DNA from: a virus
Virus record (IMG/VR): IMGVR_UViG_3300020123_000589
Span: 1 to 64,000 of that record
Strand: one strand, 5' to 3'
Length of the DNA: 64,000 nucleotides
Below the pieces are notes generated by a model. It did no database searches. It saw only the letters and a program-made list of their open reading frames with translations, and had not been told where the DNA came from. A program made the translations under genes and the position numbers. The stretch's first letter is position 1, and every line of letters begins with the position of its first letter. Of this stretch, positions 33,412-63,227 are shown in pieces.

Positions 33412-34470
33412 ATGAATTGGATTTCAGAGATGTTCGAAAATAAAGGTATAACCAAAGAAGCATCTACAGATGCTGCTCAAGAATTTCAAAAGAAAGTAAA
33501 AGCTTCTGGATGGGTTGAAGGTGCAATGGGTATTGATGAAACTTCCATAATCAAAGAAGCTGATGCTAAAATCGAAGCAGAGCTAAAAGTTCGTGACGAG
33601 TTGACCAAGGAAGCAGCCTATGAAGCTTTCCAAACAACTGAGGAAACCCTTAAACAAGATTACGCCAGGGACGCTTCTATATTGTCAGATTTTACTTTAG
33701 CATCCATGATCGCAGAAATGCGTGGACACGCTAAACAGGATTTTATGGAGAATGCAACAGAGTATTTTGAAAAGGCAAAGAAAGATGTCAAATCAGATCG
33801 CAAAGCTGCTGAGAAAGAACTTCTAGAGGGCACGGGAATGTCAGCTCAACTCGACTGGCGTAAATCTTTTGCTGATTATAAGAAAGATGAAACTCCTAAA
33901 CAGGCTACTGAGAAGGAACTTTACAATCCTAAGCTAAAAGATGTCAATGACGATCTTTCTAAGGGTGGAAAGGTTGATGCCTACGCTGAAACTGATGAAC
34001 AACACGCAAAAACTATGTTGGGCATTGGCCGTGAGGAGAAAGAGCGAACAGATGTTACAGCACAACCTGGAGAGATCCAGAAGGATGCCGCTCTCGTCCG
34101 TGACCCAGATACCGAACTCAAGGTTGGAACAATCATCCGTCTAGCTCGTTCCATCATGAGCCACGAAGGGCAGATTCTTAATGAAGGCACAAGCTGGGAA
34201 ATTACAAATATAGATGGATTTCATTATCGTCTTTCAGCTAATGGCCAAACACACGTAATCAGTTCTCATGACACACCAAAGTTTAATAAAATTGCTTCTC
34301 AAGAAATTGAGAATCACGCAACCAAAGAACAAATTATAACAAAACTAGCCGAAATTAATTCACCTTGGGCAGTAGTGGTTGATAAAGACGGAAAAGAAGT
34401 TGTAGCCCGTATTGCTGATGAACAAGTTTCAAAAGAATCTGAAGAAGAGTTAAAAGATTTAAATAAATAA
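33412..34470 (+). CDS. putative virion/head-associated protein with KxA motifs
   Basis: TKEAS, IKEAD, TKEAA, QKDAA, NKIAS, TKLAE; follows the late motif. Confidence 0.5.
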   Translation: MNWISEMFENKGITKEASTDAAQEFQKKVKASGWVEGAMGIDETSIIKEADAKIEAELKVRDELTKEAAYEAFQTTEETLKQDYARDASILSDFTLASMIAEMRGHAKQDFMENATEYFEKAKKDVKSDRKAAEKELLEGTGMSAQLDWRKSFADYKKDETPKQATEKELYNPKLKDVNDDLSKGGKVDAYAETDEQHAKTMLGIGREEKERTDVTAQPGEIQKDAALVRDPDTELKVGTIIRLARSIMSHEGQILNEGTSWEITNIDGFHYRLSANGQTHVISSHDTPKFNKIASQEIENHATKEQIITKLAEINSPWAVVVDKDGKEVVARIADEQVSKESEEELKDLNK

Positions 34471-34515
34471 GAAGTTGTCCCCTCCCCATTAAAAATATTG
34501 TAAAGGATACCTATT

Positions 34516-36108
34516 ATGGCTATTATTATACGTTCCGTCACCAACAATACACCTTATCTACTCACTTTAAAGGTTCCAAGTCTAGAAGCAAATCTTTCTC
34601 CAGTATCTGTTGCACCGTCAGCAACATTGGATCTTCTTTCAGTTGTTACCGAAGACGACCTGATTGCCATGCAACTTTATTTGGAAGGAATGGTTTCTAG
34701 AGGAAGTCTAACTGTTGCAGCTACGTTTGATACAGCTACATTAGAAGAGGGTTATAATGGTGGAGGTGGCGGCGGAGCTAATACGACGTTAAGTAATTTA
34801 ACGTCACCCACAGCACTAAACCAAGACATTCTTCCAGCTTCTGATGGTAGTCGATCTTTAGGAAGTTCTTCAGTACAATTTGGTCAACTCTATACTTACA
34901 ATGTTATTTCTAATAATGATGATTTGGATCTTACCTCAGCATTTAATGTTTATTTAGCTTCAGGACCCTCATCCGACATTATATTAAATGCGGGTTCAGG
35001 GCATATTAATGTAGATACACATAATATTACAAATATGGCAGACCCCGTTAATCCCCAAGACGCTGCCACAAAGAATTACGTTGATACGCATAGTGCAGCT
35101 CCCGCCGGAAATCCAAATGATATTCAGTTCAATAATGGTGGAGCTTTCGGTGCAAATGATGTTTTTTTCTGGGATAACAATACAGAAACGTTAAATGTTC
35201 CAAAAACAGGAATTGTAATTAGTCCGTTGGGTGGTGGCAATTCAGATGGATCAATTGGGGTTGATAATGGCCACAATCTTCAAATTGCTGCAAGTAATAC
35301 TAATTCTGCATCGTTAATTTTATTTGGTTTTACTCCTAACATGTTCTTAAATCCAACAGGAGCATCGGGTGTTAATGATACAAGTTCTTCTAATACTGCC
35401 GATCCTTCAGCAGCCTGGGATATTCAATCAACTACAAAAGGACTACTTCTCCCACGTCTAACAACAGTTCAAAGAGACGCTATAGTTTCTCCAGCAACAG
35501 GTCTTGAAATTTATAACACCGATACTAATCAGGATGAATATTATAACGGAACTACCTGGAACGCAATTGGAAATACAGCAGTTGCAGGTGCAAATACTCA
35601 GCTTCAATTTAATGCCAGTGGGAGTTTTGGTGCAGATTCCAATCTTGTATGGGATAATACGAACAAGGTTTTAACTGTTACCACTGGAGATTCACAGTTT
35701 TATGCTATTAGTGCCTCTCCCGCCATAAAAATTCTTGGACACGCCTTATCGCCGTCTGCCGAGTTAGATTTTTATAAGAGCGATAATAGTTTTGCTTTGG
35801 GATCTATTTTCACCGATGAAACGACAAATAACTTTGCCATTGCTGGTGGTAATTCAGCGGGGGATATTGTTATCAGTCCTTTTTCGGCTAAGGGTGTATT
35901 AATTAATAGTAACTCTTCTGCACATCCAGATGCGAGTGCAATGTTTGAAATAGATTCTACAACACAAGGTTTTCTCTCACCTAGAATGACAACGGTGCAA
36001 AAAGATGCAATAGCTTCTCCCGCTGAAGGATTAACAGTATACGATATAACACTGCATAAATTAAGTGTTTGGACTGGAGCAGCTTGGGAGACTGTAACAT
36101 CGGCGTAA
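34516..36108 (+). CDS. fibre-like virion protein
   Basis: G/S/T/N-rich; ITNMADPVNPQDAATKNYVD neck motif; 2x STTxGxLxPRxTTxQ(R/K)DAIxSPA and 2x QFNxxGxFG. Confidence 0.7.
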   Translation: MAIIIRSVTNNTPYLLTLKVPSLEANLSPVSVAPSATLDLLSVVTEDDLIAMQLYLEGMVSRGSLTVAATFDTATLEEGYNGGGGGGANTTLSNLTSPTALNQDILPASDGSRSLGSSSVQFGQLYTYNVISNNDDLDLTSAFNVYLASGPSSDIILNAGSGHINVDTHNITNMADPVNPQDAATKNYVDTHSAAPAGNPNDIQFNNGGAFGANDVFFWDNNTETLNVPKTGIVISPLGGGNSDGSIGVDNGHNLQIAASNTNSASLILFGFTPNMFLNPTGASGVNDTSSSNTADPSAAWDIQSTTKGLLLPRLTTVQRDAIVSPATGLEIYNTDTNQDEYYNGTTWNAIGNTAVAGANTQLQFNASGSFGADSNLVWDNTNKVLTVTTGDSQFYAISASPAIKILGHALSPSAELDFYKSDNSFALGSIFTDETTNNFAIAGGNSAGDIVISPFSAKGVLINSNSSAHPDASAMFEIDSTTQGFLSPRMTTVQKDAIASPAEGLTVYDITLHKLSVWTGAAWETVTSA

Positions 36109-61296: not shown

Positions 61297-61532
61297 GGAT
61301 ATGAAATGAGAAAAGAACGAGCATTGGAGGATTCAAAAAACTATTTAATTTCTGTGCATGATGCTCTTCGTACAGCCTTCAGAAATGCTACTCCAGCAGA
61401 ACAGGTATTTCTAACAAACGTTTTAGAGGGAATCGAGAAGGATGTAAAGCAACTTGAAGCGTTAAAAGAAATGATGGAAGTATGGAAGATCAAAAAAGAT
61501 AAGAAGTTAGAAATGACTACAGAGGAATAAAA

Positions 61533-63227
61533 ATGAGCCGACCTAAAGGCAGTAAAAATATTTCTAAACAAGCCGAGAAGCAGGTTATTATTGGTGAGGG
61601 AATTAGTGGGTCCACTTCATCAAGTGGGATGGATGCTGGTCTGACCAAAATTGGTTCTCTTGCTAAGACTGCCAATTATGGCGTATCTCAGACTTCTTCA
61701 TTTTTCTACAGTCCTGAACTCACAACTGAGAGCTGGCTTCTCCCTAAATCACGTCAAGAAACTTGCCGTTGGGCGCGTGTATTCTATAATTTAAATCCTA
61801 TTGTGCATAGTGTAATTAACATGCATTCTAAGTATCCTTTTTCCAAATTTGAACTCGTTTGTGGAGATCCTACGGTTAAACAGTTTTATGAACAGATGGC
61901 ATTCAATAAGAATTTCAATTTGACCGATTTTATTGGACAAGCTTCGTTAAGTTATGAGAAATTTGGTGAGGCTCTTTGTTTTGGTACTATGGAGAAAAAG
62001 GGAGACAAATTTCAATGGACGAAGTTTGTTCTCCTTGAACCAGAACTTATCGATGTCAAATCAGATATGATGAGTGGTAAGCAAACCTTTGAGATGGTTC
62101 CAACAGCCGAACTTAAACAGCTTGTTACTTCTACTCGTCCTGAAGATGCAGATGCTCAAAAACAGTTAGAAGAGTGGTCCCCAGAAATTGTTAAAGCCAT
62201 TAAAGAAAATAGAAATATTCGTTTATCAGATGAGAACGTTTCTATCATTGCTAATCTTACTGATCCCTCAGCTACTCGTGGAACAAGCCGTATTCAATGT
62301 CTATTTAAAGATTTAATTTTAAATGATTTTATTCGTTTGGCACAGATGGCCTACGCCCAACGATATGTGTTTCCAGTTGAAATGTGGTCCATCGGGGATA
62401 TTGCTAACAACATTATTCCAAGTACAACAGATTTGCAGAATTGGAAACAGCTCATCAATCAATCAATTCAACAACCTCCATTCTCTCTCGTTACTCCTCC
62501 TTACGTTAAGTATGAAGCTTTGAGTACCGCAGGAAAAACATTTCCTGTAAATACAGAATGGTATGAATATACATTAAGTCAGTTGATGATTGGATTGGGT
62601 GTTAATAAGAATTTAATGACGGGGGATGGCCCTTCTTTCAGTGCAGGTCTTAAAGGTATGTCTCTTCATCGTTTGATGATGGAATATAAATTCGTAAGAG
62701 ATAAATTTGAAGATTGGATTATTCACAGATTTTTTGAACCCATTGCTGAAAAGAATGGTTTTTATACGACTGAGAATGGCGAGAAAAAATTAATTTTACC
62801 TGAAATTTCTTGGAAAAAATCTCTTGATATTGAGGATGCAGAAGCAGAACGCGACATGTTTGTAAAAATGTGGGAATCTGGAGTTATTAGTACAGAAACT
62901 TTGTTTACTAAATTCCCCACTCTTGATTTTAAAACGGAACAAAAGAAATTAGAACTTGAACGTGGAACAATTTATGATAAGGGTGATGGAGCAAGGTTGC
63001 CTGAGAAGATCCATAAATCAGTTGTAAAACCTGGAGGAGATACAGGATTTGGTGGAAAAGGCGGTGGTGGTGCACCAGGAGCTATTGTTCCAATTAAGCC
63101 CGTCAAACCAGTTAAACCAGGAGAAGAGCCAGAAGCTGGAGAAATTCCAGTTCCAGGTGCTCCAGAAAGTACCCCAGAAGGTGGTGGAGAAGCTACAGCT
63201 CCCACTTCCATCGCTCCAACAGTATAA
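61533..63227 (+). CDS. probable portal protein
   Basis: 564 aa two genes after TerL; FY..NPIV..VI, RGTS, LGV..LM.G, GVIS.ET; Pro/Gly-rich tail. Confidence 0.65.
   Translation: MSRPKGSKNISKQAEKQVIIGEGISGSTSSSGMDAGLTKIGSLAKTANYGVSQTSSFFYSPELTTESWLLPKSRQETCRWARVFYNLNPIVHSVINMHSKYPFSKFELVCGDPTVKQFYEQMAFNKNFNLTDFIGQASLSYEKFGEALCFGTMEKKGDKFQWTKFVLLEPELIDVKSDMMSGKQTFEMVPTAELKQLVTSTRPEDADAQKQLEEWSPEIVKAIKENRNIRLSDENVSIIANLTDPSATRGTSRIQCLFKDLILNDFIRLAQMAYAQRYVFPVEMWSIGDIANNIIPSTTDLQNWKQLINQSIQQPPFSLVTPPYVKYEALSTAGKTFPVNTEWYEYTLSQLMIGLGVNKNLMTGDGPSFSAGLKGMSLHRLMMEYKFVRDKFEDWIIHRFFEPIAEKNGFYTTENGEKKLILPEISWKKSLDIEDAEAERDMFVKMWESGVISTETLFTKFPTLDFKTEQKKLELERGTIYDKGDGARLPEKIHKSVVKPGGDTGFGGKGGGGAPGAIVPIKPVKPVKPGEEPEAGEIPVPGAPESTPEGGGEATAPTSIAPTV

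Follow-up and report, generated by a model that had tools for sequence, protein, structure and literature searches.

K-x-A peptides at the module borders of giant late proteins in a soil phage, and their likely recognition by a prohead protease

A head module encodes giant proteins whose modules are joined by a short peptide

The window analysed here is a 64,000-nucleotide stretch, the first 64 kb of a 151,359-bp IMG/VR phage record (IMGVR_UViG_3300020123_000589); coordinates beyond it use the same contig numbering. Its source is a large uncultured soil phage, nearly all of its genes lie on the + strand, and the late block at 33412-63227 is a head module. The giant late proteins encoded there are chains of modules unrelated to one another (nucleotidyltransferase-like, HAD phosphatase, 2H phosphoesterase and zinc ribbons, together with the clade-specific WIDP and YMWDA modules), and these modules are joined by a short peptide with the core K-x-A and the fuller form [S/N]-[L/I]-(x)-K-x-A, followed by S-L. 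Because the same motif sits at canonical prohead-protease substrates across a wide clade, it is most likely the recognition site of this clade's prohead protease, and the large late proteins are most likely polyvalent cargo polyproteins that would be cut into modules in the head.

From 33.4 kb onward, the gene order is a 352-residue protein, two fibre proteins, a 1168-residue protein and a gene split by an HNH endonuclease gene (41856 and 43433). The order continues with a DeoC-like aldolase, an endonuclease-like gene, a small protein, a trypsin-like protease, proteins of 1789, 387 and 1299 residues, the terminase and the portal; past the window lie an 1184-residue protein and then the major capsid protein. 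The genes of the putative cargo proteins are the following.

33412..34470, + strand: 352-residue head-module protein with eight K-x-A; candidate sites at residues 15, 48 and 293
38337..41843, + strand: 1168-residue multi-module protein, the richest in the motif (29 K-x-A versus 10.2 expected)
41856..42608, + strand: 5' half of a cargo gene; the product carries a site at residue 187 and ends within a zinc ribbon
43433..45697, + strand: 3' half of this cargo gene (754 residues), with YMWDA-type and WIDP-type modules and a motif ahead of each (residues 205 and 545)
48501..53870, + strand: 1789-residue polyvalent protein
53981..55144, + strand: 387-residue head-module protein; candidate sites at residues 127 and 300
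55174..59073, + strand: 1299-residue multi-module protein (18 K-x-A versus 10.8 expected); candidate sites at residues 291, 577, 894 and 1081

The 48501 product is composed, in order, of a nucleotidyltransferase-like module, a HAD phosphatase, a WIDP module, a small module, a 2H phosphoesterase, a YMWDA module, further modules and two more WIDP modules. Its domain matches comprise a weak NTP_transf_2 match, a HAD module resembling polynucleotide kinase-phosphatase, and a 2H phosphoesterase (PF13563), besides which it has four or more unnamed modules, and its homologues additionally carry ParB, HD, ligase and transglycosylase domains. K-x-A is located at the joints, at residues 298, 407, 555, 622, 883, 991, 1301, 1437, 1564 and 1695. 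An earlier note on this DNA, which had proposed that late proteins are processed at K-x-A, quoted motif strings that are all present in the genes it assigned them to, and its placement in 48501 of KLA before HAD, KSA before WIDP, KTA before 2H and KEA before YMWDA is correct. In the 38337 protein, a tandem form, K-x-A-S-L-(x)-K-x-A, is seen at residues 377-384 and 855-863.

The same note treated the open reading frames (ORFs) at 41856 and 43469 as two proteins. Their motifs are as described, but the two ORFs, of which the second can start at 43433, are halves of one gene with the HNH gene between them; in the sister phage (G001) they correspond to a single ORF of 1479 residues. The HNH gene interrupts a zinc ribbon, precisely at the point that separates its two Cys pairs. 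A group I intron was rejected as an explanation for the insert, as no Rfam match was obtained even at an E-value of 1, and the cargo gene may be either truly split or interrupted by an unrecognised intron.

The motif is enriched in the late proteins and is selected as a peptide

The eight late proteins named in the earlier note (6563 residues) were compared with composition-preserving shuffles (n = 500) and with shuffles restricted to 20-residue blocks. The core motif (pattern K.A) is observed 87 times versus 46.6 expected (z 6.4), K.A[SAD] 36 times versus 10.1, and the extended pattern [SN][LI].?K.A 13 times versus 1.3, and not one of the 500 shuffles reached any of these counts. The outcome is the same for the 20-residue-block shuffles (0/500), and therefore local Lys/Ala-rich composition is not the cause of the excess. 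In the control sets, the early genes carry 35 K.A versus 44 expected, with individual proteins scattered around expectation, and the genes beyond 70.2 kb carry 80 versus 91; the proposed contrast between late and early proteins thus survives correction for composition. The two fibre proteins, described previously as essentially lacking the motif, indeed contain one K.A versus 1.6 expected. The per-protein excess is largest in the 38337 product and is clear in those of 33412, 48501, 53981 and 55174.

K.A comes out first when 1516 residue pairs separated by gaps of 0-3 are scanned without bias. No enrichment is observed for the Glu-ending motifs [LI].E (T4-type, 104 versus 97.8 expected) and [SAG].E (phiKZ-type, 159 versus 164), nor for [VLI].A, in a comparison that gives K.A 104 versus 61.6. 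The over-represented flanks are Ser at -3, Leu or Ile at -2, Asn at -1, Glu or Gln between Lys and Ala, and Ser-Leu following Ala, and 10 of the 11 genome-wide matches to SL.?K.A are found within the head module. Among 33 homologues of the 48501 protein (1025-2749 residues), K.A[SA] is observed 148 times versus 31.6 expected. The codons at K-x-A sites vary synonymously in the same manner as the background, which indicates that selection acts on the peptide; a DNA-level recombination signal was rejected on the basis of this variation.

These proteins are rich in Lys, Ala and Glu, several of their modules are paralogous repeats, and the motif was originally picked by eye, all of which could suggest a functionless by-product of composition, paralogy and motif choice. 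Such an origin is highly improbable. Neither global nor local shuffles reach the observed counts, K.A leads the unbiased scan, and the motif is found both ahead of at least five unrelated module types and in unrelated structural proteins. In addition, it is retained in homologues of 24-33% identity amid variable linkers: in the 53981 family, the Ala, and mostly the Lys, of both candidate sites is kept at this level of identity.

The motif precedes unrelated modules and lies in predicted linkers

The HAD, WIDP, 2H, YMWDA and following modules, which represent five unrelated types, each start just after a motif. Because conserved sequence begins immediately past the Ala residue, the scissile bond is probably located after Ala, a placement made from sequence. 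When residues 280-1000 of the 48501 protein are modelled with AlphaFold, the HAD, WIDP and 2H modules resolve as separate domains, and five of the eight K.A in this region (residues 298, 555, 622, 883 and 991) are found in segments that have a predicted local distance difference test (pLDDT) score below 50 and account for 23% of the model. Site 407 falls in a dip between two domains. In contrast, sites 333 and 693 are located within helices of folded domains and are probably unused. The earlier proposal that the motif maps to domain linkers therefore agrees with the model and with the 48501 homologues, although for these two copies a role as a site is not plausible.

WIDP modules provide the largest sample of borders: a K.A is present no more than 14 residues upstream in 168 of 242 copies (96 proteins) versus 8% of controls, and the most common spacing places it seven residues ahead of the Trp. 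The module spans ~135 residues and is encoded at 49719-50135 and at ~45065-45500, ~52400-52800 and ~53200-53590. It is very rare (73 cluster representatives out of 1.8 billion) and occurs solely in these giant phage proteins, where a single chain has up to nine copies. No Pfam match and no usable ESM Atlas match were obtained for it. This module could anchor cargo in the head.

Comparison with the sister phage reveals that the motif is retained and that modules are gained and lost next to it. Across proteins of 57-86% identity, K.A is kept at 63 of 101 sites, compared with ~45% expected from the rate at which other Lys and Ala residues are conserved, and 13 of 42 indel boundaries abut a K.A versus 5.9 expected. 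In the 33412 protein, the sister phage has a zinc-ribbon cassette inserted at residue 293 with K-x-A-S-Q on both sides. In the 38337 protein, 17 of the 29 sites are kept at 57% identity and three large indels abut a site, and in the 48501 protein two WIDP cassettes are missing from the sister, one (1566-1696) flanked by K-x-A at both ends and the other (1303-1440) at one end.

The same peptide is found in the protease-scaffold fusion, the portal and the capsid protein

The structural genes that carry the motif are the following.

61533..63227, + strand: portal protein (phrog_16240), with G-S-L-A-K-T-A↓N at residues 41-48 of a variable N-terminal arm (the arrow marks the predicted cut here and below)
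64833-68387, beyond the window: 1184-residue protein, a prohead protease (residues ~40-235) fused to a scaffold; the N-terminus matches the head-maturation-protease PHROG phrog_18299
69153-70121, beyond the window: major capsid protein (phrog_2522), with K-T-A↓S at residues 7-10

The order of portal, protease-scaffold and capsid genes is the same in ~50 related loci, and the expectation that a prohead protease would be encoded downstream of the portal is thus borne out at 64833-68387. In an AlphaFold2 (AF2) model built on 33 homologues (pLDDT 83.5, and above 90 at residues 40-235), the N-terminal domain has the fold of T4 gp21 and the herpesvirus assemblins. VIA-align pairs the model with T4 gp21 (5jbl) at Z 10.7 (root mean square deviation of 2.4 over 126 residues), with the varicella-zoster virus (VZV) protease at Z 9.6 and with pseudorabies virus (PRV) pUL26N at Z 9.2, herpesvirus proteases spanning Z 7-9.6. 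The top Foldseek matches are all herpesvirus proteases and gp21, with weak E-values near 3e-3. The candidate catalytic residues His96, Ser151 and His178 are invariant in 33 diverse homologues, although His178 may belong to a Cys/His metal site. The domain also contains invariant Cys161, Cys164, Cys176 and His178 residues that resemble a zinc-ribbon insert, a feature that, to our knowledge, is not found in gp21 or assemblin. Since the remainder of the protein consists of a long variable region, a coiled-coil-like stretch and a conserved tail at the end, the 64833 product is regarded as a protease-scaffold fusion.

In this protein, K-K-A↓S-L is located at residues 245-249, after the last strand of the protease domain and in a linker with a pLDDT below 50 in the AF2 model. 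When 120 homologues of the fusion were aligned, 102 of 119 had a K.A in the 15-residue stretch behind the protease domain, compared with 20% of control windows, and in most homologues, very distant ones included, this stretch reads [I/L/M]-[S/T]-K-x-A-[S/A]-L. A second candidate, S-K-K-A↓N, lies 33 residues from the C-terminus, counted from a cut after Ala, and in most closer homologues K-[K/R]-A-[S/N] is found at a distance of ~35 residues from the C-terminus, with a conserved tail behind it. At the opposite end, a K.A is present among the first 25 residues in 88 of 120 protease-scaffold homologues, in the form K-T-A-[A/S].

Portals, capsid proteins and scaffolds of relatives were taken from 70 related IMG/VR loci. 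Portals of 45-57% identity and the portal of phage G retain the portal-arm motif, and in diverged portals K-x-A-S, often as K-x-A-S-L-x-K-x-A, is found in the N-terminal arm at residues 26-56. The capsid proteins of many relatives carry K-x-A-S at residues 6-33, down to 18-25% identity, where it lies at residues 20-33. In distant loci, separate scaffold-like ORFs contain three or four copies of the motif. In the cultured Bacillus phage G, whose portal is ~30% identical to the one described here, the tail of the protease gp19 contains K-V-A↓S and K-I-A↓S, and the portal arm contains K-M-A↓S. The phage G literature that was searched, which did not take in the 2020 phage G capsid paper, gives no cleavage sites.

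A different role for the peptide, as a conserved linker or docking element that is never cut, would be served by a handle that binds scaffold, portal or DNA, or by a flexible joint inherited with shuffled cassettes. The motif does travel as a cassette at a fixed spacing, it is kept even on a stand-alone WIDP protein, and the very N-terminus of the polyvalent family also reads M-K-K-x-A-S; T4 internal proteins likewise use an N-terminal capsid-targeting sequence (PMC10052503). However, the same peptide follows the protease domain and marks the scaffold tail, the portal arm and the capsid N-terminus, which are known places for prohead-protease cuts, and in the models it lies in disordered linkers. 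The two roles are also not exclusive, as the T4 targeting sequence is itself removed at a protease site. An uncut docking peptide is accordingly judged unlikely, though it deserves more weight than any other alternative to recognition by the prohead protease.

Several observations weigh against that recognition. The tripeptide alone is not sufficient as a site, because a conserved K-I-A is present in the capsid N-arm and K.A is also found inside helices. The G002 subclade has an altered post-protease motif (R-V-A), and the capsid N-terminal site is absent from both G002 and phage G, as a result of which it was rejected as a universal feature. The site close to the protease-scaffold fusion's C-terminus is the weaker evidence, as its occurrence in 70 of 120 homologues (58%) is only moderately above the 40% of control windows. 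The fixed seven-residue spacing, along with the motif at the N-terminus of the stand-alone WIDP protein, could mean that the motif is part of the WIDP domain. The pooled z-scores across loci and relatives overstate independence because relatives share ancestry. Finally, no capsid-targeting signal was identified on the cargo proteins, and cleavage at K-x-A, the scissile bond, packaging and injection are what we infer from these sequences. In the more distant G002, the smaller pre-terminase proteins have no general K.A excess.

Candidate processing enzymes

A second protease is encoded within the head module.

47849..48499, + strand: Trypsin_2/HtrA-like serine protease (PF13365, E-value 3e-24) with a lipoprotein signal peptide; the long ORF is 47627-48499 and the real start is Met75

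HtrA-type enzymes favour small aliphatic P1 residues. With an Ala at the predicted cut, this preference, the position of the gene directly ahead of the 48501 gene and its location between the portal and protease-scaffold genes in many relatives would fit cleavage by the trypsin-like enzyme instead of the prohead protease. This assignment is improbable. A lipoprotein signal peptide and lipobox are present in 18 of the 18 homologues examined, and for this reason the enzyme should be exported, away from cytoplasmic proheads. Furthermore, its gene is far from the head module in G002 and G003, and it is missing from a 300-kb relative of 98% completeness and from another of 87%, whose capsid and scaffold-like proteins keep K-x-A-S. 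K.A is depleted in the trypsin-like protease sequences themselves, an observation that speaks neither for nor against this role. As an observation in its own right, an exported lipoprotein of the HtrA/trypsin-like type is regularly encoded in the head modules of this clade (homologues in loci L026-L071).

A zincin metallopeptidase was also considered as the processing enzyme and rejected. A domain search and an HExxH scan of the late proteins found no zincin-like domain or motif, and the only proteins with HExxH are small and encoded outside the head module.

A proposed pathway of head processing

If the prohead protease recognises K-x-A, processing could proceed as follows. The polyproteins would be built together with the scaffold into the prohead core, and the protease would release itself at the site behind its own domain. 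It would next trim the tail of the scaffold and the arm of the portal, and in many relatives also the N-terminus of the capsid protein. The cargo chains would then be cut at exposed linkers to give single modules, which would remain in the head and might accompany the DNA into the host. That the large late proteins are packaged and delivered with the DNA is suggested by their position in the head module and by the shared protease motif.

Comparison with known head-maturation systems

The T4 prohead protease cuts after Glu in L/I-x-E. In T4, phiKZ (gp175) and SPN3US (gp245), portal proteins, core proteins and ejection proteins are processed by the prohead protease at a short motif (PMC10052503, PMC5694885), and in SPN3US the motif ends in Glu, Ser is favoured at P1' and 13 of 14 mapped sites remove N-terminal propeptides (PMC10052503, PMC5694885). 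Like these systems, the phage described here has a protease with the T4 gp21 fold encoded in the head module, a short linear motif that appears to be common to portal, scaffold or core, capsid and internal proteins, and a protease that is predicted from the motif to remove part of itself. Unlike the substrates of the Glu-cutting T4 and SPN3US enzymes, the late proteins are enriched in K-x-A and not in Glu-ending motifs, and unlike the SPN3US sites, most of the candidate sites lie between successive modules of very long chains. The earlier suggestion of a K-x-A specificity distinct from Glu-ending motifs remains the best reading, given the presence of the motif in the protease, scaffold, portal and many capsid substrates. 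Full-text literature searches returned no description of a K-x-A cleavage specificity.

The consensus of herpesvirus proteases is Ala↓Ser. With respect to architecture, the 64833 product resembles the herpesvirus assemblin precursor (pUL26/UL80a) in having an N-terminal protease fused to a scaffold, a release-like site after the protease and, in this phage and most closer homologues, a candidate maturational-like site a few dozen residues before the C-terminus with a conserved tail behind it. The predicted cut would likewise have Ala at P1 followed by Ser, and PRV assemblin ends in Ala225 (PMC4498786). In contrast to the herpesvirus sites, a conserved Lys two residues ahead of the Ala and an upstream S-L pair replace the hydrophobic position, and [VLI].A is not enriched in the phage proteins. 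The phage protease domain also differs by its invariant Cys/His zinc-ribbon-like insert, and herpesviruses have no modular cargo polyproteins of the kind found here.

In phage P2 gpO and lambda C/Nu3, protease and scaffold functions are likewise combined in one self-processing reading frame. These belong to sequence families different from that of the 64833 fusion, and we know of no shared junction motif on cargo polyproteins in either system.

The giant late proteins most likely belong to the polyvalent protein class described by Iyer et al. (2017). Polyvalent proteins are very long, combine unrelated enzymatic modules that include 2H phosphoesterases, are encoded with virion genes and have been proposed to be delivered with the DNA (PMC5512222), and the 48501 polypeptide similarly contains several unrelated domains of disparate activity. 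Head processing was already suggested for this class, mainly by internal zincin-like metallopeptidase domains, and assemblin-like peptidases were noted only at the C-termini of some members (PMC5512222). Here, in contrast, the protease belongs to a scaffold fusion distinct from the late proteins, and the junctions show an explicit motif.

A broader and more tentative proposal, which we regard as possible but doubtful, is that a clade of large soil and sediment phages extending to phage G uses a herpesvirus-like Ala↓Ser cut with a Lys determinant. Cargo would then be plug-and-play, in that K-x-A-led modules could be spliced into a polyprotein, loaded into the prohead and freed as enzymes, and the layout of release-like and maturation-like sites would be an ancestral feature common to tailed phages and herpesviruses instead of having arisen in herpesviruses. 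The cassette-like gain and loss of modules between the sister phages would be explained in this proposal, because any K-x-A-led module could be spliced in.

Possible function of the cargo

The fold of the 2H module (50380-50900) matches LigT-type RNA-end enzymes about as well as it matches a poxvirus cGAMP phosphodiesterase and Acb1, an anti-CBASS enzyme of phages. In combination with the nucleotidyltransferase-like module and the HAD module that resembles a kinase-phosphatase, this makes a role of the cargo in RNA repair or in the destruction of immune signals plausible. Given its likeness to enzymes of RNA repair as well as to phage enzymes that degrade cyclic-nucleotide immune signals, the 2H module may be a pre-packaged counter-defence enzyme, an idea that is testable.

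If the sites are cut, K-x-A would provide a sequence rule for naming head cargo in this clade and for predicting where mature products start, which would be useful because most members of the clade have not been cultured and polyvalent proteins are difficult to take apart by other means. The motif would also define a third specificity class for proteases of the gp21/assemblin fold, beside the Glu-ending phage motifs and the herpesvirus Ala↓Ser, and the herpesvirus-like layout of release and maturation sites would strengthen the link between phages and herpesviruses. As phage G is cultivable and carries the same sites, the claim is directly testable.

Other genes of the head module and its relatives

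The remaining features of the module are the following.

42601..43482, + strand: HNH homing endonuclease gene (phrog_374, E-value 8e-53) without K-x-A; not part of the motif system
59668..61296, + strand: terminase large subunit (phrog_2), a context marker of the head module
63842-64501, + strand: second HNH endonuclease gene, of which the start (63842..64000) lies within the window

A megablast search of the 48501 gene against cultured phages returned no match, and a search for related loci with the 38337 protein as query returned no relative. The two fibre genes (34516-38314), which contain repeated D-S-T-T-[Q/K]-G-F-L-P-P-R motifs, sit within the cargo block. Because these genes are located downstream of the capsid gene in the sister phage, the cargo block has been rearranged. 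A DeoC-type aldolase gene and an endonuclease VII/HNH-like gene (45701-47097) lie in the middle of the block, and the aldolase is kept at 57% identity in the sister phage.

Among the relatives, several portal ORFs span 903-1793 residues, far above the 564 residues of the portal described here (L006 8486-11416; L071, L072, L082, L044 and L052). The portal of G002 has a ~400-residue insert that ends in His-Asn-Cys and looks like an intein. Oversized terminase ORFs are also observed in some relatives (828 residues in L044 and 959 residues in L057).

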